DNA of 63,911 nucleotides, filler included, from Collodictyon triciliatum (taxonomy: Eukaryota): the NCBI GenBank assembly GCA_043381765.1. It is 7 parts of 7 records of this genome, joined end to end, with 100 filler letters (N's around TTAATTAATTAA, not from the genome) between each part and the next. Parts side by side here need not be neighbours in the genome. Positions count along the whole stretch, not along the records: positions 45,683 to 59,460 come from JBHJMP010002435.1; 6 more parts are not named here. One strand, 5' to 3'. The notes beneath the pieces were generated by a model. That model was not told where the DNA came from and did no database searches. It saw only the letters and a program-made list of their open reading frames with translations. This document shows, in pieces, positions 16,722 through 63,911 of this stretch (within the stretch, counting starts at the first letter, position 1; every line of letters starts with the position of its first letter). The position numbers and the translations under genes are program-made.

Positions 16722-16757
<36 letters not shown>

Positions 16758-23652: not shown

Positions 23653-23877
23653 GCTTACTTTACAAGTTATTCTGGTATTACATACTTGATTATATGAATG
23701 AATGGGTTTTTGAGATCCCGGGCTAAAACATAGTATAAAATTTAGATATTTGCATATTTTGTATATGCACTATAATCAATATTTTAGATAAATGCAATAA
23801 ATTAATTAAAATTTTACCAAAGATATTCAATGATATGATTTTATTTATAATTCTATCCTTATAGTTTTTTAAGATGA

Positions 23878-23913
23878 TTTTTTCTTTTATTCGATTCAAA
23901 ATTCTAGTTGTGC
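23878..23913 (-). mobile_element. Diverged solo LINE 3'-tail copy with possible 7-bp TSD
   Basis: Reverse complement ends TTTTGAATCGAATAAAAGAAAAAA. AAGATGA flanks both sides (23871-23877, 23914-23920). Confidence 0.5.
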
Positions 23914-36098: not shown

Positions 36099-36195
<97 letters not shown>

Positions 36196-36990
36196 GCACT
36201 CTCGCCATATCTAAGCTTCCTTCGATATCCCTGTATTTTTTCAAATAATTAAATTAATCAGTGATTTATTACGTATAAAAAAAAGAGACATGAAAAGATT
36301 AGGAATCGATATCATTTACTTGATTGTTGCTTCGGGTATTGATATATTACTCGGTTCAATAAAGGTATAAATTTCTTCCAGCTAAAAATTTTGGATGATA
36401 AATACAATATGAGTTCCCTTTACTTTCGTAATTTCATGAAGCCTATAACTGTGTATTATTACAGAAAAAAATAAGTAGCGAAGAAAGACATAAACAGATA
36501 GGCTTTGTTTACCGTTTCGGCATATTTCACTTTGTCCCAGAATTTTCCGCTCACAAATGGCAGAAAGAAACTAATAGAAACCCTCGTCCATACTGAACTC
36601 CTCACAAAGATGAGAGATTTCAAATTTTTCTTATATCTATTTTTTGGACGACAAGTACGATTTACATATGAGAAAAACGAATCTAAAAAAATTAGAATCA
36701 TACAGGTGGCTGAACAGGTATGAAAAAATTACACAAAAGAATCATCATTTTTAGATATAAACGGTATACAAACTTCCGATTCACCACAGAGTATAATTGC
36801 TTCATCCAACCAAAAGCTGGCTTGTTTTCTGCAGTGGCACCAGCACCAAAATAATATACAGAATATGGACGGAGAACAACTCTGTCGAGTTTGTTAATAA
36901 TATACATCATGACACGTCCAGGTTCCATATTTGATGCAGGATAAAGCGAGGCATCAATTGAGACACATGCGTGCCCGATTCTGTCCACAC
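34437..36990 (-). CDS. BCH/CRAL-TRIO plus RhoGAP domains (ARHGAP1/Cdc42GAP-like), multi-exon; 5' end in gap
   Basis: GVDRIGH..YSVYYF..NKPAFGWMKQLYSVVNRK|YKKNLKSLIFV..PFVSGKFWDKVKY (BCH). VFGIAIE..IPHVVLECVRFIEE, GMESEGIFRVASG (arginine finger), VASFLKSYLRQLPNPLL, NRMTPANLAICLGPSLL (RhoGAP). Confidence 0.9.
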
Positions 36991-37954
36991 CTTTCGGTCA
37001 AATAGAAGAAAAAAATAAGCACCGGCANNNNNNNNNNNNNNNNNNNNNNNNNNNNNNNNNNNNNNNNNNNNNNNNNNNNNNNNNNNNNNNNNNNNNNNNN
37101 NNNNNNNNNNNNNNNNNNNNNNNNNNNNNNNNNNNNNNNNNNNNNNNNNNNNNNNNNNNNNNNNNNNNNNNNNNNNNNNNNNNNNNNNNNNNNNNNNNNN
37201 NNNNNNNNNNNNNNNNNNNNNNNNNNNNNNNNNNNNNNNNNNNNNNNNNNNNNNNNNNNNNNNNNNNNNNNNNNNNNNNNNNNNNNNNNNNNNNNNNNNN
37301 NNNNNNNNNNNNNNNNNNNNNNNNNNNNNNNNNNNNNNNNNNNNNNNNNNNNNNNNNNNNNNNNNNNNNNNNNNNNNNNNNNNNNNNNNNNNNNNNNNNN
37401 NNNNNNNNNNNNNNNNNNNNNNNNNNNNNNNNNNNNNNNNNNNNNNNNNNNNNNNNNNNNNNNNNNNNNNNNNNNNNNNNNNNNNNNNNNNNNNNNNNNN
37501 NNNNNNNNNNNNNNNNNNNNNNNNNNNNNNNNNNNNNNNNNNNNNNNNNNNNNNNNNNNNNNNNNNNNNNNNNNNNNNNNNNNNNNNNNNNNNNNNNNNN
37601 NNNNNNNNNNNNNNNNNNNNNNNNNNNNNNNNNNNNNNNNNNNNNNNNNNNNNNNNNNNNNNNNNNNNNNNNNNNNNNNNNNNNNNNNNNNNNNNNNNNN
37701 NNNNNNNNNNNNNNNNNNNNNNNNNNNNNNNNNNNNNNNNNNNNNNNNNNNNNNNNNNNNNNNNNNNNNNNNNNNNNNNNNNNNNNNNNNNNNNNNNNNN
37801 NNNNNNNNNNNNNNNNNNNNNNNNNNNNNNNNNNNNNNNNNNNNNNNNNNNNNNNNNNNNNNNNNNNNNNNNNNNNNNNNNNNNNNNNNNNNNNNNNNNN
37901 NNNNNNNNNNNNNNNNNNNNNNNNNNNNNNNNNNNNNNNNTTTATATAGTGCTA

Positions 37955-40595: not shown

Positions 40596-41334
40596 TCTTG
40601 CCCCGTCACTTTGCAGGGTTTCCTCTCAGTCTTGTGCCGATTCGTCTGTTGCAGCTTCGGCTGTTGCCTTCTTGTTGCTTTTTATTATTATTATTGCTGT
40701 TATCTGCCGCTACCTTGTGTCTGTGTCGAGCCATCGAGAGTGTTGGATTACAAGTGTACTTTTACACGAAGCGATGAGAAAGAAATGAAGAGAATCGTGG
40801 GAAAGTCGGGTTATGCCTCGGGGCTCAAAGCCAGCGTTTACAGTTGGCTGGTGATGGGCGATCTGACTCCATGAAGCCCGCAGCTTATTGTTCTTGTTTT
40901 TTGCACCGATCAGGGAGTAAAGCGCGTTATGCGTGACAGATCAGAGCAACATAAGGAAGACAATCTCTGTCGATTACATAATTGAATATGTGTCATATAT
41001 TTTCAGTATTTACATTGAATTGTCCTCTTTTAAGAAATTTTATATTGTAATATTATAACTTCCACGAATGTGCGTTACAGAAACCATCTCTTGTAGTCGC
41101 TTGCTTCTCGTTATTCGCGGGTGTTTATGCTCTGCCGTGCGGTGGCATTCGCGCCGAAGCCTGTCGGGTGGTTTGTGGTATTCTTTATGGGACTAACAAG
41201 CGGCTTGGGTGGCGGTGCAACATAGGCATGGCCCACGAGCCTTCCCATACGACCGGGTTGGGGACGTGGAAGGAAAAGCAGATAGAAACAGTGCGCGGTC
41301 GAAGAGGGTGCTGCGGTTGGAGGAGGGAATGTGG

Positions 41335-42970
41335 TTAACCAAAGTACTTTTTAGAGAGGCGAAGGAGCTGCTCGTTTGTAAGGAGGGTGATCATCACGTG
41401 AGGGGCGATGCGGACGTAGTAGGTCAGAAAGCCGCGGTAGAATGCCAAAGGCCCTTCCTGGCGGATGACTTGGCGCACGCAGTCGAGCGAGTTCTTGTAA
41501 GGCAGTGTGCCGTCTGGGTTGGGCTGCTGCTTCTGGATGCGTGTCTTGACAAAGTCAAACGGCAGGCTGAATGCCGACGCAAAGAACCCCGATATCATAG
41601 ATGCTGAAAACTCAGCACCAAAACCCTTCCCGAATTTGGATTGGAAGTATTCCTGCAGCGAGCGATTAGCCGTGTGATTGTGTGATTGTGTGATTTGATT
41701 ATGTGATTGATGATGTGATTGATGATGTGATTGATGATGTGATTGATGATGTGACTGATGATGTGATTGTGTGATTGTGTGATTGTGTGATTTGATGATG
41801 TGATTGATGATGTGATTGATGATGTGATTGATGATGTGATTGATGATGTGATTGATGATGTGATTGATGATGTGACTGATGATGTGATTGATGATGTGAT
41901 TGATGATGTGATTGATGATGTGATTGATGATGTGATTGATGATGTGATTGATGATGTGATTGATGATGTGATTTGGTGATGTGATTTCCTTCAATTGTAT
42001 GGTGAACCTTTGATTGGTCAAAAGAGGACAACATGGCCATGTTGAGGGACATCGCGCGGGTCACGGTCGGGATGCAGCCCTTCCAGAGAGAGGCGACTCC
42101 TTCCTCACGAATCATGCGGCTGGAGATTACAACCGTCAGCAAAATAAAATAAGATAAAATAAGAAAGTAAATATAAAAAGAGAGCTGCATCCGAGAAGAT
42201 TAGATGAGAGCAAAGAAAATGTCTAAGGGGCTGCACGCACGTCAGGGCATTGCCGACGCCCGTGTAGTTGCGGCGGCTCTCCGGAGGAAGCGTGCCGTCG
42301 GCCTGCATGCGGATGAGAGCCACGTCGGCCGGCGTGCCGATGATTGCGCCGAAGCCGCCTGCGCCGAGGCCGCACAGGACTTTGTAGATGAAGGGCAGCG
42401 GCCGGCCGGGCTCCTCCAGAGACGACGTCAGCTGCCGGTACATCCCGAGACGGGCGGTTGTGTACGTGGCCTGCGCCCGGTCGGTGTTTTGTTACAGAGG
42501 GAACCCTGAGTTTGCAGGCGGCGCGAGGAGGGCAACAGAAAGAGAGGGGGAGGCGTGGGGGACGAGGGATGAGGGATGAGGGACGAGGGACGTGCCTGCC
42601 GGAGAAGGGCTGCTGAAAGGCCGCGATACAGCGCAAGGAATCCTTCCTTCTGGATGACTTCTCGTGCAAGAAGAATGGGGCTTGCGTTTGCTCCTTTTCC
42701 GAGAAGTTGGATGCGCACCTTGACCATGTCTAGTAAAGGAGTTATTATTGTTTGTTTGTTTGTTTGTCTGTTTGTTTGTTTGTTTGTTTTTTTGTTTTTG
42801 TTTTTTGTTTTTGTTTGTTTTTTGTTTCTGTTTTTGTTTTTGTTTCTGTTTGTTTTTGTTTTTCACCGACCTATGGGCTGGATGCAGCATGTTGCCCACA
42901 TTCCAGAGACACCGCCGAGGACGAAGGGGGTCGCTTTCTTCCAGGCAGAACTGTTGCTGTTGCTGCTCAT
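41335..42970 (-). CDS. SLC25A11: Mitochondrial 2-oxoglutarate/malate (dicarboxylate/tricarboxylate) carrier, multi-exon
   Basis: PFVLGGVSGMWATCCIQPI|DMVKVRIQL, LYRGLSAALLRQ|ATYTTARLG, GTPADVALIRMQADGTLPPESRRNY, PTVTRAM, SLPFDFVKTRIQK, YYVRIAPH: three PX[DE]XX[KR] carrier signatures. Confidence 0.93.
41672..41985. repeat. (TGATGATGTGAT)n intronic tandem repeat
   Basis: Directly visible 12-mer/8-mer array inside the last carrier intron. Confidence 0.95.
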
Positions 42971-43511
42971 GCTTTTTGAATCTGCCTGGCTTTGGTCTGT
43001 TATTTCGTCTTGTACATTTCATATTTTTTTTCTTTTTATCTTTCCTTCTTTTTTTCTGGCGTGTTCAGCTTCGCTCTTGCTCCACCTGGTTGCGCGTCCA
43101 GCTCATTGTACTTGTTTCCTTGTCAAAGCGTGTCTGTTGCTTTATTACTCGGTTTGATTTGAGTGTGCGTCATTCGATGCGTTGTGATGACTGTGATCGC
43201 CTTTTGTGTGGGTTTGCCAAGCAAAACTTTCCATGACATCATGATTTGTCCAGATGGACAGAATTTGCAACATTTGTGGCATATTTCCATTTCTTTTCAA
43301 TCCTTCACGTATTCAGAAGTGATACACACCAAATACATATAATGTGTAATATACACATATATTCAGAGCATATTTATAGACTTAATGGTGTATATTTACC
43401 AGCATATTCATATTATAAATTGATTTCCACAATGAAGTATATAGTATCGTACTTCTGCCACTTCTGGAATATGTTGCCGGGAAATTCTTTTGTCCGCCGT
43501 TTATTCGCTTC

Positions 43512-45382
<1,871 letters not shown>

Positions 45383-45483
45383 CTGATCCATATTAAAAAA
45401 AAAAGATTATATGTTACAATAATACAAAATATACAAAGTAATAAATATGAAAATGCAAAAAAATACAAGAGAAAGAAAGAGAG

Positions 45484-45582
<99 letters not shown>

Positions 45583-46216
45583 NNNNNNNNNNNNNNNNNN
45601 NNNNNNNNNNNNNNNNNNNNNNNNNNTTAATTAATTAANNNNNNNNNNNNNNNNNNNNNNNNNNNNNNNNNNNNNNNNNNNNTTTTTTTTTTTTTTTTTT
45701 TTTTTGAGAAAAAAAACATTTTATCTTGAAAACTCTAAAGCAGTCTGTCATTCCTCGCCCGTAACGCTTGGTGCTTCTTAACCTTTTTCCTTTTGATAAA
45801 TCACATTGATGTCACATTCCATAAAAAAAAAAAAACGTATATGAAGAAAAGGATTCTCTTTTTTTTTTTTTTTGAGTCTTGAACACAGAGCACACGATTT
45901 CTTATCTTCCTGTTAGGGAGGAAACCTATTGGTTTAAAGGATTTATTTATCATTAATTGCTTATTTTTTTCAAAGAGCGAAATTGATGTCAGAGGATGAA
46001 AACAATTTGGTTTCATTTCTTGGTCGACTCTTCATTTTTTTTTGTCAATTTTTTATTTTATTTTATTTTATTTTATTTTATTTTAATTGTTTGTGAGCCA
46101 GACGACATGCAATCAAAGTCGTCAAAATGTTTTGCGACTTTATCGCGCTTCGCCAAGTGGATGCGATTAAAGGAGGCGGAACCCTCTGTTAGGAGACAGA
46201 ATCGAAGGAGGCCGTC

Positions 46217-49180
46217 TTACGACTTTGCTGTCAGGAAGCGGAACAAAACAGAGGTTCCCGAAATCAAGCGACGAGTGACTGCCTCTGTGAATTCGTTGAA
46301 GTTGAGCCCTGAGCGCAGGACAGGCGGGCCAAACAGAGCCTGCACAGCCTACGCCGAGAAAAAGAACATCAGAAAGCAAACAAAGTCTTCAGTCGAGGAA
46401 TCAAGTACACTTGGGTGTTGGAAAACATGCATTACTCAATTATTATCCCACAAAAGAAAAGAAAAGAAAAGAAAGAGAAAAGGAAAAGGAAAAGGAAAAG
46501 GAAAAGGAAAAGGAAAAGGAAAAGGAAAAGGAAAAGGAAAAGGAAAAGGAAAAGGAAAAGGAAAAGGAAAAGGAAAAGGAAAAGGAAAAGGAGAAGGAAA
46601 AAGAAAGAGAGGGAATGTGCGGGCGAAGACCTTTTCTATGGCTTGGGTTGGGTCTTCGTTTGGTCTGCGTGGGTCCAAGCTATAAATGTCTCTAATCATG
46701 GTCTTGACTTCTTCTACACTGAGGGAGCCGTTGCATGATTTGTTGTAGAAGCGAAAGATAAAGATTAGGCGGAAGCGGCCGGTGGTTTTTGCTAGGTCGT
46801 GCGGGACATCTGCGCGCATGGCCAAGACCCCGTAGAGAAACTCATCGACACTGATTGTGCCGGAGCTGTCAAAGTCGAGGGCGCGGAAGAAATCGTTTGT
46901 GTGTTGGCGGATGAAGTGAGAGGCATTTTCTGTCTGAAGGAACTGCGCAAAGATATCACGGGTCATTTCTGGCTGACTTTCGCTTCCGTACTGATGGCAG
47001 TATTGCCTGTAGCAATTGTGGATGGACTGAACGTGCTCTGCATCGGAGCGGATTTCCAGGAGGAAAGCGGGCGCAAGACGGGTCATTGTGGAGAGCAGAA
47101 GCGAGTCCTGTGGCTTCGGTTGGGACTGGTGAATGCGCTTTTCCTCTCTGGTTGGAGAAGGCGGGCGGTTGGATTGAGACCAGGAGGACGAAAGGAGGCC
47201 CTGAGAAGACGACGATGACGAAGGCAGCTGCTCGCGTTGCGGTTGCGGTTGCGGTTGCAGTTGCAGTTGCGGTTGCAGTTGCGGTTGCTGATAAGGCGAA
47301 GGAGTGTCTCTTCGTGGGATAGGGCTGTATTGCAAGTCTGATTCGTTATCAAACTCTGACTGCGATTCTGACTGCGATTCTGACTGCGATTCTGACTGCG
47401 ATTCTGACTGCGATTGCAATTCAGCGGTGTGTTGAATCAGGAGCGGTGTCAAGAGCAGACTGCCAGTGCTTCCAGAGTCGTCGTGAGAGGGGTCGACATC
47501 GTGTGTGACGAGGATGATTGCGCCGTGGTTTTCCTTCGAGCCGCAGTAGTTGCGAGCAGAGAAGACGGTGAGGAGCTGGCCGCCTGCAAAGAACTCGTAG
47601 CCATTCTGGACGCACTCGTGGGAGCGGATGATTGCATCGAGATTTGAGTTGCGGCAGAAGCGGGTGACAACGTCAGTGCCGAAGCACTGTGTGGAGCCGC
47701 CGCGCTCGTTCTCTGTGATGCCGTAGATCTTGCTGTAAGGCACAGGGTCGTTCCAGAGGGCGTCTGCAGCGACGGGGTCTTCGATTTCGCTGAAGGGGAC
47801 GCGGACGGCGCGCAGGTCGTCCAAGGAGCGGAGATGGGAGCCGATGCCGCCGTGGACGACCAAGATGCGGTCTTGGGCCTGCCAAGCGCGGATGCGAGCG
47901 TTTGCGTTTGCATTTGCGTTTGCGTTTGCGCGGGGCGAGGATGACGGGAGCGGAGTCAGGGCCTGCAGGACGGCGCCGAGGGGCAGGTAGTCGAAGACGG
48001 CGTTGATGTCTTCGTAGAGGGCGGGCCCGTCGTGCGGGCCGTAGCGGGCAAGGCACTCGTCGTAGAGGCCAAAGTCCCTGTTTGTGGCGCGCAGCTCGTG
48101 GTTGCCGCGCACGAGCGTGATGCGGGGGGCGTAGAGCAGCTTGAGCGCAAAGAGGATGGCGACGACCTCGAGCGAGTGCGGCCCGCGGTCCACAAAGTCG
48201 CCGTTGAAGACGTAGTGGATGGCCAGGACGTCGCCGCTGTACGCGCACGGCCGCCCGTGCTGCCGGAACAGCTCCACAAGGTCGCCCAGCTGCCCGTGCA
48301 CGTCGCCAAAGACCTTGGCCGGCGCAAGCACGCTGACCACCGCCGTCGCCTGCGCGTAGCACCGCGTCCGCACGCTGCTGCACACGTCCCGCAGCTCCTC
48401 GTACCGCAGCCCGAACGCCCTGCCCTGGCCTCCGTCTGTGGCGGGCGGCGCGAACGTCCCTGCTCGCTCCACCGCCGTCTGCACAATCTGCTGCGCCGTC
48501 CGTCGCGCCCCGGCAAAGGCCGCGTCCCCCGCGTCTGCCGGCAGGAACGACAGCGACGGCGTCCGCAGAAACTCCGCAGGCACCGCCTCCGCCTCCCCCG
48601 CTCGTGCTGCCTGTCCGTGCAGATCCACACGCTCCTCCTGGTGCGCTGCAAACGGCGCGAAGCGCAGCCCTCCGCGGTTGGCCGTCCTGGGCTTGCTGTT
48701 GTTTGGTTCGGTGCGTGGGTGGGGTTTCTTTTGAAATGGTTTGTTTTGTTGTTTTGTTGTTTTGTTGTTTTGTCGTTTTGTTGTTTTGTTGTTTTGTTGT
48801 TTTGTTGTTTTGTTGTTTTGTTGTTTTGTTGTTTTGTTGTTTTGTTGTTTTGTTGTGTTGTTGTGTTGTTGTGTTGTTGTGTTGTTGTGTTGTTGTGTTG
48901 TTGTTTTGTTGTTTTGTTGTTTTGTTGTTTTGTTGTTTTGTTGTTTTGTTGTTTTGTTGTTTTGTTGTTTTGTTGTTTTGTTGTGTTGTTGTTTTGTTGT
49001 GTTGTTGTTTTGTCTTGGAGTGTGTTTTGCATAAACTCGGAACCACCCAGGGCGCCCCCTTTCAGATATGGATTCGGCACGAAGTGTATGATCACCCGAC
49101 TGTCGCACGGCCTCTGCATTTCCCGATGTTGTAAATGTGTCTGATTTGGATGAAATTGAATTTTCGTTGTGGTCGCACCT
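46217..49180 (-). CDS. PPP-family Ser/Thr phosphatase (PPKL/BSU1-like catalytic domain) with C-terminal EF-hands; 5' end unresolved
   Basis: GDVHG, GDFVDRG, RGNHE, HGG, RSHE and FSARNYCG motifs. EF-hand loops DFDSSGTISVDE and NKSCNGSLSVEE. Last exon ..AVQALFG..FTEAVTRRLISGTSVLFRFLTAKS* follows the (GGAAAA)n intron. The 971-aa ORF reads through microsatellite introns. Confidence 0.88.
48740..49010. repeat. (TTGTTGTT)n/(TTGTTGTG)n intronic microsatellite
   Basis: Directly visible. Other arrays: ~765-832, 11136-11229, 12168-12269, 34031-34155, 36076-36194, 43879-43970, 45467-45582, 46487-46590, 55515-55650, 60192-60308, 62049-62176. Confidence 0.95.
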
Positions 49181-50512
49181 GTCTGTTTTTCTTTTTAAAA
49201 AAAAAATAAACCCGAGATTGGACTGCTTGTGGCAACGAATATTTTTCAGACCCGATGGTGGCACCGTGTGACAGCTATGCACGTTGTTGGTGATCATTCG
49301 CCATCTTTGGTTTTTCGCTCCTTGCAATTGTCCTATTTTCAATATTGTCATACTTTTCCTTATGCAACATCTCTTTTACTTTCATTTTACTTTCATTTTA
49401 ATTTCAATTTTCTTCTCTCTTACTCTTTTCTCTTGTTCTTTTCCAAAACACATGAATTTCAGCTACACAATTCAGAAGTTTCAATGGTCTTGTTCACATT
49501 TAATTCTTGGTCTAGAGGCAGAAGCAGTTTCCTCGGCTTTATTTTCTCTTAATAAACTGCTGAAATGAAATCAAAGCAATTAAAACAGAAAAAAAAAAAA
49601 AACAGTTCAATCATAATAAACAAGACCGAGGAAACTACCTCCGACAAGAGGGCTGGACGAGACCATGAAAATCCTTGGTTTTTTTTTTTATTGTTACACA
49701 TGTACGTAGGCGGGAAAGAGAAAGAGAAAGGAGAGAATAAATGGAAATGGAAAAGAATGGGGGGCAGAAGTAACACAGGGAAAGGTGAAAGCGTTCGCTT
49801 TCAGAATACATCCAAGTCGATGGCTGAACTCTGATTTATTTTCTGGTCTACGATATAACGCCCATGTGATCGTAGGTTCAGCAATTCCCATTGCTTGCTC
49901 TCCCTTGTTGGTGCTCTCTGGAACATACATGCTATGGTGCTGGCTCTTTTGGTATGGATGAGCCGTATAATTTTTTCTTCAGTTGAGCTGTGGGCAGATG
50001 GGGCAATATTTTATTAAGTTAGCAGTCCCTTAGAACTACTTCTACATATAACCAAAAAAGGGCGAGTATCTAAAAAGTAGATGTTATTCTGACTTTTGTT
50101 TGTCTCTGTTAATGCTCTTGGTCCTCCCTTTTCTCGTATAGTATAGCCTTTCTGTCATAAGTGAATTGGTAAGTTATATACTAGAAACGATTTGGCTAGA
50201 GGTAAAAGGGATTGCAATTTAATGTGGAACTGCATTATTGTCTGATTTTGTGATGGATTCATAAAAGAACACACATTATTGCATTCAGATGTAGCTTTGA
50301 AATGAAAGAACTGTTTTATCTGTAGGTTCCAGAGGGGGGGGGGGGGGGGTGTTGAATTATCAGTACTTGATTTATTCCGGGAAAACAGGCATTGTAATAT
50401 GAGAAGAATTCAACTAGGAAACGTGGACAAAGGGGTAGGCCTTCGATTTTAGGTCGGAGTGTGGGTGAATTAAGACAGATGGAATGATTAAGACTTGGTG
50501 AATGAGTCGTAC

Positions 50513-50815
50513 TAAAGAGCCGAAGCCGCAGATTTTGTTCCGGTGCTTGAGGGAGATAACAATGCCATGGCTGTGGCTGTCTTGTGGCGAGCGTGTTCTA
50601 TGCGTGCAATGGTATCGTAGAAAACATGCTCCAGGAATGTTTTGAGAGCTTGCTTGTTTCTTTATATATGAGTCTAGATACACACTGGACACTGCTGCAG
50701 CTTGCAAGGCGGCGAATGACAGGCTTAGTGATGCCCATATGCTGCCACGCAAGACCTTGCGGTGGCGCTTGATGCCTCCTTTTATAAGTCGCTTCCCACA
50801 TTTTTCTCGGTCTAT
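50513..50815 (-). pseudogene. H4: Decayed histone H4 pseudogene
   Basis: Frame-corrected translation KGGIKRHRKVLRGSI/GITKPVIRRLA..VSRLIYKET../LKTFLEHVFYDTIARIEHARHKTATAM/IVISLKH..CGFG is collinear with canonical H4, with about three frameshifts and many substitutions. Confidence 0.88.
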
Positions 50816-51214
50816 CGTTCTTGAAAATGTGGGCCACGGTGACTGATTAGCACCTTTTGTGATTTTTGTGATTTTTGTGATTTTTGTGATTTTTGTTTCA
50901 ACTGAAATTATTTATATCTGGAAAATATTGCATTTTATGATTATAATTGTGTGGTGTTAAATATTCGAAGCTTTAGTATAAATAATACACATAATATTGC
51001 ATAAAGGTATTATATACAGAGGCCGCTCCTGTGACATCGAAATCATGAACCTGCTTTGTTACACCCTGGAAACACTGGCGATCAGAGCCCAAATCTCTTA
51101 TGCCTTTCTAATAATGACACAAAGGCCCAATTCCTATTCACCTGCTTGCTTCGATGAAAAGTAAACAAGAGAGGACTATACACTCAACTAATCACGATGC
51201 TTCCCCGCCAGTAG

Positions 51215-52510
51215 ATGAAGTCGCTCTGCGTTGTTGTTGCTGTTGTTGTTTCGTTGGCACTCTCCGTTGCTGGGGATGGAAATAACAAGTGCATTTGGAC
51301 TACGTCTGAGAAAGTTTATGATTTTACACCGCTGATCAGATCAGGGTAAGAAGGAGTGTTTCGTCTTTTTATCTGAGGTTCTTTCCAAGTTGTGCACTGG
51401 ATTTGAAAATAAAATAATGCGCTCAATCATCTCTTAATACCTGAAATGATGTCTTTAAAAGCTATTCTGCAAGGTGTTGATCTATTTACGCACAAAAAAA
51501 AAAGAAGTTCTTTTCACTAAAGTAAAGACCCTACATCATCTTTGCTTCTGTATATACTAGCGGATTCTACGCGGGAGTTGAGCCACCAGAGGTCTACTAT
51601 GAACTCAACTTCTGTGCCGAGGCTGTCTCGAGATCTTGCGCTTCGTATATTTATCTCTATATTCGTTTCATCATTATTATAATCATATATATCACTACGC
51701 ATATGCATCATAAGTTACTTTTATTTCAAACCCTGCATATGTATGATTGGGATGAATCTTCTGAAAATATTCTTTAAAAAAATAGAAGCAATATGACATC
51801 GATGGGCATCGAAATTATCGATGGCCAGTGCAGTTCGATAGTCCCCAAGGATTCAAGCCCCACATTTTCCTTTGTGAATGGTACAATATATTTGTCGATG
51901 GCTACCATATCCACTAGACTTTATGTTGAAGATTATTGCATACGATATTTTCCTGTTATCTATTAGGAAGAGAATTTAATAATATACTATGAGCCTTTTT
52001 TTTATTTTTATCTTTTTTTTTTTAACTTTCTTTCGGAGGAAAAGCATCTGGAGCTCAGAAATCAATAAGTCATTACAAAAATATACAAATAAAATCAATC
52101 ACGATATTTATACAATTTGCGCTGAATTGTAGGTAAAAACGACGTGGATGGTATCCTAATGAGATTTTCGGACGGTGAAAAATCCCTAGTATATGAGCTC
52201 ATATGCAAAAGCGGTTTGTATCCAGCAGAGCCATTTGAGGTGACATTTATGTGCAAAATTAAGGCGATCATTGTGTATTCCAATATATAACTTCAACCCA
52301 AAATAAAAAGAAAAATGATTGAAAAGAATGACAAGGAAATCAACCATCTTACTCGCTTCATCCAATCACATCTCGTATAGCCCTCGCTCACAAACATATT
52401 GTTAGATAATCCTCAATCAGAGGGAATACAAAGCCATCAGACTGGGAACTTCATGCGCTTGCGGAACCAGTCTTCCTAACAAGGAGCCGGGAGTTATTCT
52501 GAACCTCTAA
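51215..52510 (+). CDS. Small secreted protein with one mannose-6-phosphate-receptor-homology (MRH)-like domain; exons 51215-51345, 51561-51644, 51786-51880, 52133-52239, 52406-52510 (173 aa)
   Basis: Five GT-AG exons splice in frame: MKSLCVVVAVVVSLALSVAG-DGNNKCIW..VYDFTPLIRS..YYELNFC..C..C..GILMRFSDG..LVYELIC..IRLGTSCAC. YDLxPL, YxxNxC and TxxAC are MRH hallmarks. Absent from the ORF track. Confidence 0.7.
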
Positions 52511-52815
52511 GCAGAAGCTGAGCTGGATGCGATCCGCACTCACAATGAGACATGACATCCCGAGCAAGCATCCCAAAAAAAAAATTGCCGAGATATGATG
52601 GACAACAGAAGAGAATAAAAGCATAAAAAAAATATCTTCCACAAGCAGAAAAAAAATTTTTTTTTTCTCTGCTTCGGTCGCTGCTTACAAATCCGTCCGA
52701 GGGGATAATCTGTCTTTTGCTGTCGCCAAGAAATGACACAACATCGGCAAAGAGAGCGACCCACAAAGAAAACAAAGAGAACTTGCAAACGAGGCATTCT
52801 TATACTCACACCAGA

Positions 52816-55513
52816 ATGGATCGGCCTGCGCTTCCTCCGGTGCCGAGTCATCTGCCTCCGCCTCCGCCAACAACTACAACAACTCCAACAACTTCAATTC
52901 CAACAACTTCAGCAACTTCAACAACTCCAACAACTTCAACAACAAAGCAAAACCTTGCATCCGTGCCTGACTCAGCAACGCGTGTGGCCGTCCCAAAACG
53001 ACCGCCCCCGCCAATCCCATGCGACTCTTCTTCAAACTCGAGTTCTTTATCACAGCCATCAACACCGCTTTCTGGGCAGACCGCAAACCCGCCTCTTCCG
53101 CAACCGCCTGTGCGACGAGCACCAAACACCCCGACGCAGACGCAGATACCACCATCACAATCACAATCACAATCACAATCACAATCACAATCACAATCAC
53201 AATCACAATCACAATCATCCGCAGCACCTCTTTCCCCACGACGCGGACAAGTGGCAAACTTCTCTCTCAGTGGTGTCTCTGATCTGCTCCACTCGTTGAT
53301 TCGTGGCAAAGAGGCAAATACTTCTCCGCGCAGCACTCGCAATCTCAGCGCCGGATCGCTGCCGGACTCGCTTTCCACCCGCTCCAATGTGTCCGCCCAA
53401 TCGGCCTCATCGCCCGTCCAGTCCTCGCATTCGACCAGCCATGATAATCACGTGCAGCTGCAGTATCGTGCTACCGTTCAGATCATGGGTTCTATTCCAG
53501 TTATTTCCACATTCTCGTCCGCCGGAGGAGCGCGTTTGTCGACGGCGACTTCAATCAGCGCTGCGACTCAGGCGGGATTGTTTGAGGAGAGTTATGGGTT
53601 TGCAGATGATGGAGCAGATAAGAGACGCTCCGCAAGTTTGGTTCTTTTGGAGGAGCGCGCAGAAGAAACAAAGATGCAAATGTGTACGCAGGGGCTCGTC
53701 TACTTTTATCTTGAGAATGAGGAGCTGCAATCAGATTATCTCCAGGCGTGGATGATGCTCCCTGTTGCAAACGCGCAGGTGCAGTTGGTCGTTCCTTAAT
53801 TAATTCTTAGTCTTTATCATGTATTTATATTTATATTTATATTTATATATCTTTTGTATTTTGCATGTCTGTGGAACCTAATGAAAAAATCGCTGACTTG
53901 AAGTTGATATCAAATTTCCTTTGTGTTTGTGTTTGTGTTTGTGTTATTATTTATTACCGTCATCACTATTGCGATTGTTTTTTTCTTCTTTTTATATTTA
54001 TTGTCTCTTTAATTGCTGCTTGTTGTAAGGTCTTCCTGGTTGCTACATCGAACGGTAATCTCTTTCGACTTCTTGGGGCTGCTATCACTGTGTCTCAGAG
54101 TATAAAAACGATCATCAGATATGCAAAAATTGCCTGTGGAAATTGTCCATTGGAGGTAAATGATTCGTTTTTCTTTGCTTTTTCTTTGCTTTTCTTTGCT
54201 TCTTTGGCCTGCAAACCAGTTTCATCAATAGATATTTTCTATTCTCCTTTCTTGGATTTTATATTGTTTCCAAGATTGATAAACCATGGAAGAGAAGAAA
54301 ATGCTGTTTGTTTCAACACAGAACTCCCGACGGCATATCGAGGAGTATATTGCATCAGCCGAGGAAAGATATGAGTATTTGATAAAATGTACAACAAACT
54401 GCCAGCAAAAAAGGGACGATAAAGTGGCACGACATCAGGTTTAGTTGTCGTTTTTCTTCTCTCAATTAAATTCAGTGCTTTTATTTTTATAGAGCCGCAT
54501 TAATATTATGTTATGTCATCATACTCTAGGATTTTCTGCCATAAAATAATATCATTAGTAAAACTGCTATCATTTTTATAATATGCCTCTGTCTACTCGG
54601 GGCGGCTTATTTCCAACTGCAGTTGATGAGTGCTGTAAAATCCTTTCAACATGCGGCTCAACAACTTATTTCTATTGGTGCTGGGCAGATTGAAGAAAAA
54701 TCCACGGAGTATATGACAGGAGAATCAATAAATGATCCATTAATTACACTCGGAGTACAATTTATCGAAGTTTGTTTCCAAAAAAAATAATCAATTTTGT
54801 ATGTATCTTGGAAAAAAATTGATTTAATTTTAACCCATGTCTAAAAACGAATCAACTGATAATAGCAAATTGAGGCCGTCTCTGACATCCAGAGCTTTGA
54901 CCAATTTTGTCCTGACCTTACCCGAATTAATGCCACTTACATATCTGCCATACACCAAAGAGCTGCAACTTGCAAAACCACATCCTTGCGTAGGTGTCTT
55001 CATGATGTAACCAAAGAACTCAGGTCCCGATTTATTCATATATACCATTAGATTTGTCATTTTTTGGCTATTGATTTTTATTTTGATAAACTCCACCTTT
55101 GTATCGAATATATCGCTTTTTCCGATACAGGAATTTTACTTCATGTTTTAATAATAAATCTTTAGCTCACATCACACCGAGCTCCTTGAATTTGCCAAAG
55201 GATATTCATCAGACCCTTCATTTTCCAAAAAATACCATACTGCGAGGTTTTTTGTTTGTTTTTGTACTTGTTTTGTACTTGTCTTTATTCTTGTTTTTGT
55301 TCTTGTTTTTGTTCTTGTTTTTGTTCTTTTTTTGTTCTTGTTTTGTTTTTTTGTTTTTTGTTTTTTTGTTTTTTGTTTTTTGTTTTTCTTAAGCTTTATG
55401 TTATATTATATTTAATGTATTTATATTATTAAGTGACTCTAAATTCATGTGTCATTTTAGTTTGCTTACGCCAACTCAAATATTTAAAGTATGCTTACCC
55501 AGTGATGGTTTTA

Positions 55514-55599
<86 letters not shown>

Positions 55600-58500
55600 G
55601 TTTTTATTATTGTTATTATTATTGTTATTATTATTGTTATTATTATTTTATAGACACAATTTGAAAGAATTGAAATCTAAGGCGTCAGCAATATCCACCA
55701 TTATTGTTTTGTGTCAATTGGCTGAAAAATGTGCCACTGCCTCAATCAATAAGCTGAAATCTCACATTGAAAGCTTGGTGAAGCAAATGCCGAAATTTGA
55801 ACAAGCATGTTCCTTTTTTTCATTTGCATTTCTATAATTTTTCCTGCAATATGGTGCTTACACATTATTATCTGCTTTTTATCTCATAATTTCCATCTTG
55901 CGCGGATGATGTAGAATATTCAGTCGTATTTAACGGATGTGCTCCAAGTTATAACCGAAATGGAGTCAGAATTGGAATTGTTATCCACAGTTACTTCCAA
56001 TATTTCTTCGATTAATCAAATAGGAGTATATGTATGGTCCAAAGGAAGTAAATTCATGGATATAATTACAAAGAATCCTGGGTGAGTATATTTATATAAA
56101 CACGTCTATATTGTCTGTTATTTATTATCTATTGTTAGGGTATATCGTAAATTTAAAAACAAAGCGTAATAATTTCTTTAAACAAACCTATTTTAAGGGC
56201 TATAAAGGACATGTTCAGTCAAGTGAATATTCGAAAGCTGTACCTTCGTCGTGCATACGGCATATTTGATTCAAGCTATCTCTTTATGTTGAGCTGTCGT
56301 GCTGTCTCGAACTCGAATGCAGTGTAAAACCTTGCCTTCTTTGTAAATCAACACCCTTTTAATGTTTATCATTATCGTAAAGTGTTTCTTTTTAATTATG
56401 AATATACCGTTTTATTAGTTTATTGTTTTTATTTTATTTTTATTTTTTTATTTTTTAAATTTTATTTTCCATCGGATTAATATCAATGTTCAATTGCAGA
56501 GACCACTCTCTCCTTTTTCAAGTCACATCGTTGTCATGGACAATCTGCAACTCTGTCGCAGAATTCACAGACCTCATTATAATGAGCCGAAATATGAAAA
56601 TGGCTCTCTACCAACGGTCCTCAGACATTGTGCCAGATATGGGCCTGTATGGAAGTGTTTCGAAAACACCCAAAATTGCAGCATCAGAGAAGTTGGATTT
56701 GATGCACACAGACCCAACAAGTATATGGGCTGAAGTAGACTCAGGTCGCACTGATAACGTAATTTTCGGGTATGCTTTAATGAAATTTATGGTGCATTAT
56801 CTTTCAGAAAGTTGGTCCTCTAAGATGCTTTGACAGAATAGCTAAATGGCTGTCTTCGTCATATACTAAGTCTCCTTTCTAGACCTTTTGATTCATTTGA
56901 TCCCTGTTAAGTTTTTTAATCGTCAGTTTCTATACTCAGAGACCAGGATGGTACAATGAAACTTAGAGCTGCTTCCATAAATAAGCTGATCGAAAGACTT
57001 ACTTNNNNNNNNNNNNNNNNNNNNNNNNNNNNNNNNNNNNNNNNNNNNNNNNNNNNNNNNNNNNNNNTTTTTTAAAAAAAAAAAAAAGTAAATGTGAAAA
57101 CTAGACCAACAATTTAAGTATCCTGTGAAGATTAACAATACAATTTGTTCCTACTATCTTGATTTCAGATATGGACTTTGTAATGGCTTTTTTGGCTACT
57201 TACCGGTCTTTCATTTCCCCTCAGAACCTAATGGATAAATTATTTGAAAGGTTTCTGCTTAACATGTCTACACAACTTCAATCTATATATTTGTATTTAA
57301 CATAAAGTGCCATCGAAATACTTTGAATCGAATAAAGGGAAAAAAATAAAGTGCCATCGAAATCAAACAGATATCACGTCCCTGAGAAATACAGCAGTCA
57401 AGCTAATGTAATAAAACTGAGAGTTTGTAACTTCATTCATCATTGGCTTCGCGCTGGGGTAATTAATAAGTTTTTAGATTAATTGCATATTTTAAGATAA
57501 AATTTTGATCTTATATCTTTGAAGAGTATGTAACTTCCTGTAATTGACACAAACTCAAAAAAAAATTCATAAACTATGTATTATCGCATTATTGCACATA
57601 TGCTCTTCTTTCTTTTTATTTTTATCTTTATTACACCATCCAGAAGTTTTGCATATATCATATAAATCTTTTTCATGTATTGGTATTGTCAGATTGAAAA
57701 ATGAACAATGAATGTTTTAAATAGTCTGATGACTTGGACGAGAATCTTATTTCGAGGCTGGAGAAATTCATCGAGGATTTCAAAGCGTTATCATTTCGCT
57801 CAGAGGCACATATTGCCAGTAAGCTAGAAAAGGACATCAAACAGGTATGGCGTCCTGATTAATTTTTAATACATTTGATTGAACAAATGTTTCGTTTTTA
57901 AAAGAAAAATTGGATAATAATATAGTTTTGGCTATAAAAACAGGTTAAAATTCAGCAACAAGAAGAAATCATCGAAAAATGGACTCGCCAACTGAGCGTA
58001 TTTTTTTTTGTTATCCTTTAATTTTTATATTTGGCTCTTACGAATGAATGTGTCCTTGTAATATCATCTGATGATATTCAAATTATGTATGGCATTTGAT
58101 TGTTTCTGTGAAAAAAAATATTTAAGACAACTTCAATTGATATTAGCATTTGGAGGATGTTTGGCCTAATCGAATATTGGAGGCTGACGTTGACTCGATC
58201 GCGGAACAGATTTCGCTGATTGATTTTTCAATTTTTGGCAACATCAAAGTAAACTGATCAAAGAAAATCACTGGAACCTTTGTTTATTTAGATTATTTAC
58301 TTTTTAGAATTTATATACTGAAATTTCATAATAAAAAAAAACCTTTATTTTTTTATCATATCTGGGGTTGGGTCCACCGCTAATTTTGAGTCTCCTTTTT
58401 ATGTAAAAAGAGATCATATTAAAATATTATTGATTGCAAAAGTGCCACGAATTGTTGGACCAGTCCTGGAATAAACCACACCGCCGCCACCATTCTCCCC

Positions 58501-59460
58501 ATGTGGTCTCTATGATTGCTCGATTCAATTGGATATCTTACTGGGTTGTTAGCTCCATTCTTTGGCAAGGTAGTTTTCATAATAGGACTGAATATTTGGT
58601 GGTATGATTTCACTATCCCAAAATCAAGTTCAATCATGTAATAACTGCATTAGCTTTCCCAATAATAAAACCCTTTTTATTTTATTTTACAATATAGACC
58701 AAATAAGAAAACGTACAAAGCTCATCAGCAAATTTATACTTATTGCAGAGGCCAGTCATTTTATGCTAATCTTTTTGTTTTTGTTCTTGTTTTTACCGAA
58801 AAGATAATGCATTCCTCTCGTATTAGATTTCATACATACATTCTGGAAATGTGTATCGCACGAAGAAAAATTCATTTTCCTTTCTTTTCTAGTCACTCTG
58901 CAAACTTAACAACTTTAACTCGCTGATGGCAATCTTATCTGGACTGAATCTGACACCGATTCACAGGCTTCGTGTAGCAGTTGATGATTTACCTTCAAAA
59001 TCAAAACAGGTTTACTTGTCTTATAGAAGATGAAGGGCAATATATTTATAGTGCTAAAAAACATTCGTTTCGTGTCAAAAAGATATGAATTCTATCAGTT
59101 CAGAATATATTGCTAATTCTTCTATCTTCCCCTTTATGATTTTTTTTAAAACGAATCAGATATGGGCTGAAATACAAGACTTGATGAGTAGTAATGGTTC
59201 CTACAAGAAATACCGAAATGCATTGAGACAAGCGAAACCACCTTGTATTCCATTCCTGTAAGAAACCGAAGTCAAAGTCATTTTTCATTTATACGCATTT
59301 TTCTCTGTTTTTTTTAATTATCTGGGAGACGAAAGAAAAAAAGGATTGCATGGTCGAATTATTAACCTTGGCTACTAAATAAATTGAACTACCATCATAT
59401 GACCGCGCGTCATTTTTATAGAGGTATGCGCATTAATATGTTGATTTTTCTATATAGTAT
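52816..59460 (+). CDS. RasGEF (Pro/Ser-rich N-terminus, helical middle, REM plus CDC25 domain), many exons, 3' truncated
   Basis: RAASINKLIERLT, FVMAFLATYRSF, LRVCNFIHHW, IAEQISLIDF, ELLDQSWNK..SPHVVSMIARFNWISYWV, RTKLISKFILIAE|SLCKLNNFNSLMAILSGLN..IHRL, YKKYR..PPCIPFL. Confidence 0.88.
57320..57345 (+). mobile_element. 26-bp solo LINE 3'-tail insertion with perfect 18-bp TSD, inside a RasGEF intron
   Basis: ATAAAGTGCCATCGAAAT (57302-57319) + ACTTTGAATCGAATAAAGGGAAAAAA + ATAAAGTGCCATCGAAAT (57346-57363). The insert is identical to the LINE end starting at 15702. Confidence 0.9.
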
Positions 59461-60478
59461 NNNNNNNNNNNNNNNNNNNNNNNNNNNNNNNNNNNNNNNN
59501 NNNNTTAATTAATTAANNNNNNNNNNNNNNNNNNNNNNNNNNNNNNNNNNNNNNNNNNNNAAAAAAAAAAAAAAAAAAAAAGAAAAAAAAGTAAAAAAGT
59601 AAAAAAAAGAAAAAAAAAAAGGAGATTCGCCCCAGTAGTTACTCTGTAGCTGCGCAAAGAGAGCAAAGTTGTCTTCGTCACAGAAAGCTCCCACTTCACA
59701 ACAAACGCGCCGCCCTATCTCCAACCTCAGACACATTATCTTACTTAAAAGCCCTCTCCATTCTGCCTCAACGCAGGCTCCCTTCAACCAAGTCCCCAGA
59801 TTCTCACAGACGCACCAGACGATTCCTTCGTGGCAGCAAAGATGGGGCAGATGAAGTGTTTGTTTTTGAGGCAGAAAGGGATGCGCGAGTGTGGGGAATC
59901 CCTGTTAATCCGCCATACAGTGTGGGTTTATTGACATGGCTTTGCTTTTGACATGATTCGGACGAAAGGGGCGAAGCGGGATTTAGAAATAAATATAGAA
60001 ATAAATAAACAAATAAACAAATAAATCAATAGTTGTGTGTTTATTGCAATAAGTAGGGCAGTGAGGTTTACATCACACCCCAGACAAACTATTCATGTGC
60101 GCCCACCGTTTTCTTCTCTCTTCTCTTCATCATATATATGTATATTTTTTGCAATGAGAGTATACTCGAAATAGAGAAGGAGGGAAAGAAAGGAGAAGGA
60201 GGAGAAGGAGAAGGAGAAGGAGAAGGAGAAGGAGAAGGAGAAGGAGAAGGAGAAGGAGAAGGAGAAGGAGAAGGAGAAGGAGAAGGAGAAGGAGAAGGAG
60301 AAGGAGAAGAAGGTTCGGCAGAATGCGAATGAATTTGCACCAACTGAGCGCGAAGAGGTATAATGAGAGATTTATTCGACGGAAGTAGGAATCGGTGCGT
60401 GATTAGTGTACATGATAACGGCATAAGATAAAGCAGAAACGGAAAAACAGAGAGAACCCCCAGCAATTAGATTCTCAT

Positions 60479-61981
60479 TTAGACGATAGGCAGAGACCGC
60501 CATTTGTCGAGAAGATGGACGAGGAACCATTCCAGGTCGACTCGCGGAGCGCTATAGAATTCGAAATGGTCAGTTGGATAAATCAAACACATTGAGTGAA
60601 AATTTCTTGACCAGAAATAATATGCGTAGGTAAATACTATTCGGAAGTGAATGCATCATAAATTGGGTAATAAAAAGACATAGTCTCTTTAGATAAGCAT
60701 ACAACCTTGTAATTATTCGTTTACTGAAAAAAAAAGTATATGATTCGACATAATGGATTGATAATTATTTTTAGGGAATATACTTCGGGTCTGGATACGT
60801 GTTATCGGCTATTTTTGACTTCATATCGGCCACTATCTCCTCAGCGTTTGTAACTTCTCCAAAAACACTATCAACCACGTGTTCTGCTCGATAAGACGGT
60901 ATCATAATCGGTCCGCGTTGTTGGGTAAGTGAGGTTGCGTTCACTTGGTGCATGACTAGGCCGAGGCAGTGTCTAGTAATAGTTGTATTAGAGCGAGAAA
61001 GATGGTCATTACATATCACATATCATACAGATTAAGTACGAAACATTAATACAAACAATAATAAAAATAAAATAGAAATAAAAAAATAATAACAAACAGA
61101 GACAAACCAGAAACAAGCAGAAAAGAGAAAAAAATATTAATTGCGACGTGCGCACTAAATAAGCTCCACATTGTTTCATGTAAATTAGTGTTTACATATA
61201 AAAATTCAGGTCTTCGAGACTAAGCTCTTCATCATAGCCACAAAAGCGGGCAAACAATTGAATTTGCGGATGACCACGAATGCATTGTTTTAAAGACCGG
61301 ACAAACGTATTTAAGTGCTGTTTTTTATGTGAATTATTGAAAATTAAAAAAATTAAATATTGATAAGGTGAATGAGTGACACGTTCTAATCGAACAATGT
61401 TAGATAATTAGGGAAAACCTGCTCGGCCAGTGATTTCAGGCCATATTTTTGCAGAAAGATATCACGAACAAACTGTGATAACGATATATAAAGCACCTAT
61501 TTTGACACCGTATTAGAATGAACAAGATGTATTTATTTGTCTAGGGTTTCTTAATCCTGAGAAAATAAAACGATATATTTCATTAATTGTTAATGTAATT
61601 TTTTTCTTCGGAAAAAACAAAAATAACTAACTTTCGGGTCTTTGTTTTTGGCATGAACGCGGTCGATATAGAATTGGAATATTCGCTTTCGTAATAAATT
61701 TGCCTTTGTTACATAGGATTGGTTTGCTGGTACATCTTTCGTTTCGGCTGGGATGATAAAGAGGAATAAGGAAGGAATTACTCGATGTGAACTGGGTGTA
61801 AATATAAGCAAAATAATTCTGCAGCGAGCTTGATTAACCTTGTGTAAAGCTACACAACTTTGCGTTGGTCGTAGGGACTATTGGCTCGCTCACGCGGACT
61901 CTTGGGTCGGTTATCGCCGGATGAATCGTATTGATTGGCGTTTGCTCGGCTGTTCGGTTTGCCATCGGAGTTCCCAAATCC
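60479..61981 (-). CDS. Hypothetical multi-exon protein, 3' part
   Basis: Spliceable exons ..LLRKRIFQFYIDRV..|FVRDIFLQKYGLKSLAEQ|HLNTFVRSLK..QLFARFCGYDEELSLEDLNFY..|..LEWFLVHLLDKWRSLPIV*. The family is not firmly recognised. Confidence 0.5.
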
Positions 61982-62477
61982 TGATTATTATTTATTTTGA
62001 GTTTGGGCGTACAAGAATCATATATTGATCCAATATCACTGAATTCGTATCCACATCCACATCCACATCCACATCCACATCCACATCCACATCCACATCC
62101 ACATCCACATCCACATCCACATCCACATCCACATCCACATCCACATCCACACATCCACACATCCACACATCCACATNNNNNNNNNNNNNNNNNNNNNNNN
62201 NNNNNNNNNNNNNNNNNNNNTTAATTAATTAANNNNNNNNNNNNNNNNNNNNNNNNNNNNNNNNNNNNNNNNNNNNAAAAGCCCAACCCCCTATATCTTG
62301 CAAAAAGAGAAATTTTAGGGAAAAAAAAAAAAAAAAAAAAGTCAAAAAAAATAAAAAAAAAAAAAAAAAAAAGAATATAGTCAACAACACTATTATTTTT
62401 ATCAAATAGTTCTTAATGAAATAGTCGAGTATTAGTTTAATAGTAATCATGTTGAGTAAAATTTTTAATTTTTGCGG

Positions 62478-63829
62478 TTACTGACCTTGGTTTAGGCAAC
62501 GTTTCACATCATATCCGTCACTATAGGTTAGCCCATTCATCAAACATAATTTGGAATCTTCCATAAAAATAATAGGATAGTTTTGTAACGGGGGACTGTT
62601 GTTGGTTTCTATGATAGTTGCGTTGCTAAATTCCAAATCTATTATCGAAATAGTATCTCCTTGTATAGAGTAAGTCGAATATTTATAAATTCCTCCCCAA
62701 ATCCAAAGACGTTTCCCGATCGAAAAAGTGTGCATCCTGTAGCTGCAAATATAAACACTCTCTAGGGACCAATCTACATCCCATCGGGTCCATACCCCTT
62801 GATCTAATGATTGTAAAAAAATATACATAATCATTTCAGGCTAAATATTGAATACTGTGTACTGATACATAAAAGCAAATTTTTAATATTTGGGGAAATT
62901 AATAAGGTTATTAAAATAAATGATATTATATTTATCTATATAGTTAGATAAATATAATATCAAATAAATGAATAGTCATAAGTGTTTTTTTTTGGTTCAT
63001 CAAATTACCGATGGAAAACTTCATAGTTGTCCCGCATCTGTCTTCAAACATATGCGAACCACTTAACAGATATATGGTTTTATTGTAATAAGATATTACC
63101 TATAATGTTTCAAATTCAATATATATATATATATCCCAAAGAAAAAAAAAGAGAAACGGGGGCATCCATGACTATGGAAATTACTCTTACAATGTCTGGT
63201 ACTAATGGTATGCAAAGTTCTTCCAAGGGTGTACAGTCTCTTTCTTTATGGATCAGAGTCCACGTCTTTGATGCTTGGAATCATTAAATTTCATAATTTA
63301 ATAGCAAAATTTACGGAGATGGCTATTAAAAACTCTTGAACGATACTGCAAAAGATTGTGTGTTGCAATTTAAAAAAAAAATTCTCAGTAGAATGATGAA
63401 TCACATATGCTATAGTGATAAAAATGAACCCATTACCAGTATTAAACTTCCAAAAATCATTCAAAAATTGGTAATTATGGTAAGGAGAATATCCTCCAAC
63501 TGTGTAAACATCACCATATACAGATACGCAAGCTGCAATAGCCGAACGTTTGCTCGGGTAATAATGCAGACTGCTCCAGTTCCACGAATATGTATCTATA
63601 CAGGAAAAATAATAATTAAATAAAAATGAGTTGCGGCAGCAAATATGGTTGGACTAAGAAAACCTGATTCAAGTCTCCAAATATCATTTAATAGCTCCTT
63701 GGATACTCCAGAATACAAAAATAAAGTGTCTTGAACGGAAACAAAAGTGGCTCCTTGTCTTGACGGAGGTTTTAGGATTGGGAGGGAGGATTGATTTTGA
63801 TAATTTTCTCTAAAGATAACAGCCATCAC
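62478..63829 (-). CDS. Kelch-repeat protein fragment, multi-exon
   Basis: PPSRQGATFVSVQDTLFLYSG..LLNDIWRL, PSKRSAIAA..VYTVGGY..FLNDFWKF, KRLWIWGG. Confidence 0.7.
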
Positions 63830-63911
63830 ACCTTTTTTTTAAAAAAAAAATCAAATACAAAAAAAACAAAAAAACAAAAAAACAAAAAAACAAAAAAACA
63901 AAAAAACAAAA

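Follow-up and report, generated by a model that had tools for sequence, protein, structure and literature searches.

A 26-nucleotide LINE tail in a RasGEF intron of Collodictyon triciliatum and its probable origin by target-primed reverse transcription

How does a piece of DNA only 26 nt long, identical to the last bases of a long interspersed nuclear element (LINE) on another contig, come to lie in an intron with an exactly repeated 18-nt word on either side of it? The question is raised by a RasGEF gene of the eukaryote Collodictyon triciliatum (assembly GCA_043381765.1), carried by contig JBHJMP010002435.1, which forms positions 45,683 to 59,460 of the DNA analysed here (the window: 63,911 nt in seven contigs joined by linkers, with 61,779 non-N bases). 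Our answer is that the 26 nt at 57320-57345 very probably record one event of target-primed reverse transcription (TPRT) by a LINE of the L1 superfamily, which stopped about 20 nt past the poly(A). The signature of TPRT is recognised in the combination of an L1-type 3' end, a terminal A run, loss of the 5' part and a flanking repeat without mismatch.

The insert, ACTTTGAATCGAATAAAGGGAAAAAA on the plus strand, is identical to 15702-15727 at 26 of 26 positions and is made up of 20 nt of LINE 3' end and six A residues, with an AATAAA signal at 57331-57336. Identity between the two places extends 0 nt leftward and 1 nt (an A) rightward, and the first A of the right-hand flanking repeat could equally be assigned to the tail as A7. 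That repeat is the 18-mer ATAAAGTGCCATCGAAAT, present on the plus strand at 57302-57319 and again, exactly, at 57346-57363, as expected of a target site duplication (TSD). Its maximum length is 18 nt, as the bases preceding the two copies are C and A and those following them are A and C; in the window it occurs at these two sites only, even allowing two mismatches, with 0.00 occurrences expected from 100 shuffles. The inserted total is thus 44 bases, the 26-nt tail plus the second 18-nt copy of the repeat. The sites at 15702 and 57320 belong to different contigs, the second and the fifth. Zero differences over 18 + 26 nt bound the divergence only loosely, and recent activity of the LINE family is plausible.

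The recipient gene is recognisable from its protein domains: the exon ending at 57250 matches RasGEF_N (2.2e-09), and three exons downstream match RasGEF (2.3e-08 to 2.7e-07). From GT..AG ends and the continuity of the reading frame, the intron holding the insert is predicted to span 57251-57370 on the plus strand. It measures 120 nt now and would measure 76 nt without the 44 inserted bases; the insert is in sense orientation to RasGEF, and the right TSD copy ends 7 nt before the exon. For comparison, four public runs, one freshwater metagenome included and X1 among them, were set against 57100-59460; X2 and X3 are RNA-like contigs of two close relatives, and depths in these runs are sums over contigs, to be read qualitatively and not as copy number. 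None of the public runs listed shares half or more of the words of 57068-59460, and none of those sharing words was listed as RNA. The spliced contigs of X2 and X3 are 95-99% alike over the RasGEF exons and define seven exons in 57764-59424. The gene is expressed and spliced in these relatives, since their contigs skip introns of 99-194 nt with GT..AG ends. Their coverage begins at 57764, and no transcript contig of X2 or X3 extends to the 57251-57370 splice. Joining the transcript-supported exons into a single frame left four stops in the best frame, so that exon ends taken from another organism's contigs must be inexact, and the result was not used. One junction, from 58748/58750 to 58891/58900, differs between the X2 and X3 organisms, with non-canonical ends (AG..CT and GC..CT) and seven extra letters in one of them; the alignment may be responsible, or the exon ends may truly differ.

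It might be objected that the arrangement was created by the assembler, threading its way through a repeated 26-nt word, and there is something in the material to encourage such a suspicion: short contigs, microsatellites at their ends, N gaps within them, and no other contig that would confirm the junctions independently. An assembler that takes the wrong exit from a repeat, however, joins two different loci and would not leave the same 18 nt on both sides of the word, and here the exon-intron structure of one gene is intact to the left and to the right. We find an assembly artefact hardly credible.

The copy of the tail at 15702 ends a longer stretch of LINE sequence, here called LINE-a, which runs from 14281 to 15728 on the plus strand and comprises the C-terminus of the second open reading frame (ORF2), the 3' untranslated region (UTR) and the tail. 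Its 5' limit is approximate (14281 or 14345), homology being demonstrated from 14345. Within its ~1.4 kb LINE-a contains a frameshift (frames 14499-15155 and 15106-15627) and stops, and in translation its C..C...H....C motif is split by the frameshift. The only candidate for a duplication around it is an unconvincing AT-rich 7-mer, AAAATAT, at 14274 and 15726. Pfam searches with the window's own LINE reading frames upstream of 15702 returned nothing, or a stray match to v110 (0.056), and for this reason the identity of the LINE was established through a related metagenome contig, L005, and its relatives. L005, an independent contig of 1157 nt, aligns with 14693-15729 over 1054 columns at 93.2% identity and has the same tail at its end. 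Its reading frame is open for 202 aa, scores 32.4 bits against zf-RVT (Pfam cut-off 27.5) and reads CTMC...H TFVK C, and thus contains the C-terminal Cys-His motif (C-x2-C ... H-x4-C).

Relatives of the L005 reading frame are few, 14 among 1.84 billion representative proteins; the close ones are fragments of 72-359 aa, and four others have 1226-1275 aa. The ORF2 piece is ~25-38% identical to these four full-length relatives and aligns with about residues 960-1150 of them (975-1123 in the 1226-aa protein). All four contain Exo_endo_phos and RVT_1, and three of the four have a sub-threshold zf-RVT match (22.6-24.6 bits, cut-off 27.5). When one relative, P0009, was compared with solved structures, the best match was human LINE-1 ORF2p (E 3.4e-57). 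LINE-a and L005 themselves hold the C-terminal region only, and the apurinic endonuclease (APE) and reverse transcriptase (RT) domains are known from the long relatives alone. The 3' end is likewise L1-type, AATAAA followed by 2-3 nt and then an A run: AATAAAGGG plus A8 in LINE-a and AATAAAGG plus A10 in L005. LINE-a would accordingly be a decayed, 5'-truncated copy of an L1-superfamily element.

L005 came from a scan of metagenome contigs with TTTGAATCGAATAAARGRAAAA, which gave ten loci, and it was the only one of the LINE family. Five of the others (L001, L002, L004, L006 and L008) represent one unrelated, conserved AT-rich gene, in different records, that shares a 22-nt pattern by coincidence (at 2001-2022 in the first four and at 1895-1916 in L008), and L003, L007, L009 and L010 are unrelated single matches. 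Prokaryote genome contigs yielded no match when scanned. The window also contains, at about 29920-31320 on the minus strand, a 5'-truncated fragment of a related older LINE family. This fragment aligns with LINE-a over 873 columns (30464-31320) at 65% identity and, in short stretches, with L005 at 77-81%; the 3' end of the fragment (~29960-29990) resembles a decayed version of the LINE-a tail.

These results bear out much of what the first-pass annotation had read from the locus. It had proposed an exact 18-bp TSD around a 26-bp insert identical to a LINE terminus on another contig, a position in a RasGEF intron close to the acceptor, and an origin by TPRT in which only the LINE's last bases were inserted. 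The sequence and its context are confirmed, and the origin is supported, the tail being identical to the end of a stretch shown to hold the C-terminus of an L1-superfamily ORF2 followed by its 3' UTR. It had also named the copy at 15702 the parent, which has to be given up: with its 5' truncation, frameshift and stops, LINE-a is a sibling of the insert and not its source.

The insertion in RasGEF is not the only one of its kind. The 15-nt core TTTGAATCGAATAAA was found exactly at five sites in the window, 11278 (-), 15704 (+), 23631 (-), 23886 (-) and 57322 (+), which correspond to one LINE 3' end (LINE-a) and four solo tails. At up to two mismatches there are seven core sites against 0.72 expected; the two additional ones, 7903 (-) and 55098 (+), have no A run, look like chance matches and were set aside. 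The first of the solo tails is the RasGEF insert itself (57320-57345, plus strand), with a unique part of 20 nt, A6-7 and its exact 18-nt duplication. The second (11267-11296, minus strand) reads ACAC, the core, GG and A9, with a unique part of 21 nt, A8-9 and a duplication of at least 22 nt; ATCATTATCATTATCATTATCAC flanks it on both sides, the left copy being cut by the contig end. This tail is identical to that of L005 at 30 of 30 positions including the GG variant, and a GGG variant is common to the 57320 copy and LINE-a, so each duplication-bearing solo tail matches one long copy exactly. The third (23620-23650, minus strand) consists of TACAT, the core, GG and A5, has a unique part of 22 nt and no recognisable duplication, and differs from LINE-a by one mismatch (93.5% over 31 nt). 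The fourth (23878-23900, minus strand) consists of the core, AG and A6, with a unique part of 17-18 nt; its weak 7-nt candidate duplication, TCATCTT, lies 12-13 nt upstream of the tail, and such a 7-mer match is found at 3.3% of random places. These last two may be older or derive from another subfamily, since each is one base off LINE-a in or next to the core. They lie 255 nt apart in one orientation, in AT-rich DNA with unrelated flanks. The first-pass count of four solo tails was thus correct, whereas a convincing duplication accompanies just two of them.

Could the solo tails be copies of an independent micro-element, akin to a short interspersed element (SINE)? The likeness is real, in that a SINE is also a short sequence that has the 3' end of a partner LINE and owes its insertion, with a duplication, to the machinery of that LINE. 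A SINE, however, has a body of its own with an internal promoter, whereas here the 17-22 nt derived from the LINE have nothing in front of them and each of the four copies has flanks of its own. The 60 nt preceding each solo tail have nothing in common with one another, or with the LINE, beyond 0-5 nt. We rejected a SINE or other independent micro-element because no body is shared upstream of the tail in the four solo copies, and regard them as truncated LINE copies. Both strands were also scanned generically for any A run after which comes a word of 11 nt or longer that recurs within 400 nt upstream, and 30 rows were obtained; once tandem and low-complexity repeats were set aside, the 57320 and 11278 copies alone remained.

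The existence of this second copy also bears on whether the LINE's own endonuclease was needed at all, as the repair of a double-strand break in the intron might have picked up a fragment of LINE RNA or complementary DNA (cDNA) as filler. Filler DNA typically takes the form of very short inserts, and on length alone the RasGEF insert would suit. Yet it is the exact 3' end of the LINE with its A run, in one piece and within an exact 18-nt duplication, and the copy at 11267-11296 has the same anatomy. Break repair, moreover, usually leads to deletions rather than long duplications and usually leaves no A tail, according to PMC1920257. Endonuclease-independent capture is in our view very improbable.

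Traces of the tail were also encountered beyond the window, in the public runs. Over the bin 57258-57336 the summed depth is 125 in X2 and 116 in X3, and in the next bin 96 and 84, as compared with ~2-8 over the RasGEF exons. The records of X1, X2 and X3 listed there match ~57311-57354 only and then diverge on both sides. These would be tail-only copies at other loci, because none of the five 'before' loose-end consensus strings among those listed resembles the LINE 3' UTR. One loose end, again among those listed, is a run of 16 A. In a 151-nt record of X1 similar words, ...CATAGACC..AC, stand to either side of the tail and look like a duplication. Tail-only matches in the relatives have their left ends at 57311-57320.

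What the sequences show is the LINE nature of the source family, the identity of the insert to its 3' end, an A tail, an 18-nt repeat without mismatch and, in 62 kb, three further tail-only copies of near-equal length. Nick, priming, early stop and staggered second cut are modelled on established TPRT by L1, and the sequence of events at RasGEF would be as follows. The LINE endonuclease would nick the bottom strand of the RasGEF intron at a position that corresponds, on the top strand, to the junction of C and ATAAAG. The primer end thus liberated, ...CTTTAT-3', would meet as its template the poly(A) end of a LINE transcript, and the RT would copy the A run and ~20 nt of the 3' UTR including AATAAA before stopping. 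The cDNA would then be joined to the upstream end of the staggered break, 18 nt away, and gap filling would yield the 18-nt duplication. The early stop may have been caused by the enzyme itself aborting, by interference from a host factor, or by prior cleavage of the template RNA near the junction of ACAC and TTTG. The hexamer ATAAAG opens the TSD (57302-57307) and recurs within the LINE tail AATAAAGGG (57332-57337); the coincidence may be fortuitous or may hint that primer end and template had paired, and such sharing between flank and tail is not seen at the other tail copies in the window.

Several observations weigh against an L1-type TPRT event as the explanation and have kept us from putting it more strongly. 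Neither the window nor the protein libraries yielded an intact or full-length copy of the LINE family. A convincing duplication is lacking at two of the four solo tails, and the site of the second solo tail is in an (ATCATT)n microsatellite, such that its repeat, cut by the contig end, is possibly in part satellite. L1 endonuclease prefers a T-rich stretch before a purine, and the nick deduced here, between CTTTAT and G, fits that preference only loosely. The bottom-strand nicks deduced at the two sites with clear duplications follow ...CTTTAT and ...AATGAT, two sites being too few for a consensus. The predicted fold of the tail is no better than that of shuffled sequences (z +0.43 and +0.46; z -0.90 for an 89-nt stretch), so no structure explains the stop. 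Finally, no X1, X2 or X3 contig bridges the insertion site or covers 57179-57257, and a raw-read run, X8, gave zero aligned reads and hence no test of the site. As no contig or read bridges it, the filled site is not independently confirmed and no empty-site allele has been seen.

If TPRT is responsible, why are the products so short, and so similar in length? In each of the four solo tails 17-22 nt of unique sequence are followed by 5-9 A residues, which makes the first-pass estimate that synthesis aborts after ~25-35 nt about right. Probes of 19, 15 and 14 nt from the 3' end, with which tails would be detectable down to ~9-11 nt, recovered the same five copies and no shorter ones in the window, where copies longer than 22 nt but shorter than ~1.4 kb are absent too. 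If lengths are crudely modelled as uniform between 9 and 40 nt, the probability that all four unique parts fall in one 6-nt band is 0.018, with n = 4. We treat this clustering as a lead and not as a result.

It is tempting to read the cluster as the mark of a discrete unit, with the length programmed either by TPRT on a short LINE-derived RNA (the last 17-22 nt plus poly(A), for example a cleavage product), from whose 5' end the enzyme would run off, or by a fixed stop or template jump at the junction of ACAC and TTTG. The unique lengths of the four tails out of four, the gaps in the length distribution on either side of them, the probability just given and the left ends of the matches in related organisms all argue for it. 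Four tails and an arbitrary uniform model, on the other hand, make a slender base; alignments from the relatives cannot reveal shorter tails, and their ends may be shifted by chance matches; the four tails start at different points (0-1, 2, 4 and 5 nt upstream of the core); and no structure is predicted at the boundary. We therefore consider it improbable that the insert is such a unit, and take a single TPRT event that stopped early as the better description of it. A more general proposition seems to us doubtful, though less so: that in the lineage retrotransposition of this L1-type element mainly yields a discrete tail module, composed of a short A run preceded by 17-22 nt of 3' UTR that include AATAAA, with a 5' boundary fixed to within ~5 nt. 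Were it true, the module would arise by a defined early termination of TPRT, or a template jump, just after initiation, or alternatively from a processed 3' fragment of LINE RNA still held by the enzyme through its poly(A); the micro-insertions would outnumber all longer copies while staying invisible to standard repeat annotation, and polyadenylation signals would be scattered on the sense strand through introns and untranslated regions.

The comparison with mammalian L1 is instructive in both directions. The likeness extends to an ORF2 family with a Cys-His motif and, to judge by its long relatives, probably APE and RT domains, to a 3' end of AATAAA and an A run, TSDs, and truncation from the 5' side, the side on which it is expected because synthesis starts at the poly(A). 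In mammals, too, truncation is often severe: the 35 fully characterised tumour L1 insertions of PMC3514663 were all highly truncated (mean 585 bp), and an extreme case reported there retained no L1 sequence; ~60% of mouse L1 insertions are below 400 bp (PMC11084082); and the two shortest mutagenic mouse L1 insertions measure 81 and 180 bp (PMC6466679). Here, in contrast, the unique part is just 17-22 nt, tail-only copies stand against longer ones 4:2 in the window, the ORF2 piece has only about 28-30% identity to the full-length relatives nearest to it, and the host is a freshwater eukaryote, the LINE being assigned at the level of the L1 superfamily and not of a clade (L1 proper, Tx1-like or other). 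The event is of the same kind as severe L1 truncation, at its extreme short end, and the LINE family is new and distant within the superfamily.

Insertions mediated by L1 that consist of poly(A) only also exist. Together with orphan 3' transductions, such as the L1 insertion with transduced sequence only that is mentioned in a passage of PMC3514663, they resemble the present case in being TPRT products that end before any, or almost any, LINE body. They differ in that an orphan 3' transduction copies the downstream flank, whereas here the LINE's own terminal 3' UTR was copied. A phrase search of the open-access literature found no report of a LINE family dominated by ~20-nt tails, which is weak evidence of absence.

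What the locus offers, then, is a clean TPRT footprint indicating that L1-type machinery has worked in this freshwater eukaryote, and a tail that gives a 15-22 nt probe for L1-type products. Inserts this short evade repeat maskers and can pass for unique intron sequence, and they put AATAAA signals in the sense strand of genes. Two wider claims of the first-pass annotation, that the tails are very abundant across the genome and that they seed functional AATAAA signals, are plausible; for abundance there is indirect support in the four solo tails among 61,779 non-N bases and in the tail-only contigs of related organisms. The clustered 5' ends are the one feature that could raise the significance of the case: if the full genome were to confirm a tight cluster of lengths, it would provide a natural system for the failure of TPRT just after initiation, and in a passage of PMC3514663 the cause of L1 5' truncation is stated as not understood.

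As to the material itself, the seven contigs occupy 1-11319, 11420-22739, 22840-34155, 34256-45582, 45683-59460, 59561-62176 and 62277-63911. They are joined by linkers of the form N44-TTAATTAATTAA-N44 at 11320-11419, 22740-22839, 34156-34255, 45583-45682, 59461-59560 and 62177-62276, and distances across these carry no meaning. Contig ends are mostly microsatellite or homopolymer, namely (AGG)n, (TCCT)n, (ACATCC)n, (GAGAAT)n, poly-A or poly-T, and a repeat finder run over the whole window returned low-complexity families only. Three very long intronless reading frames are present: one of 979 aa at 46439-49375 (-), PPEF-like phosphatase in character, with Metallophos and EF-hands; one of 980 aa at 6999-9938 (+), with WD40 repeats and a pentapeptide-repeat stretch; and one of 723 aa at 16352-18523 (+), which has a central Cu/Zn superoxide dismutase domain. 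G+C content is ~45-59% in coding parts and ~30% between them.

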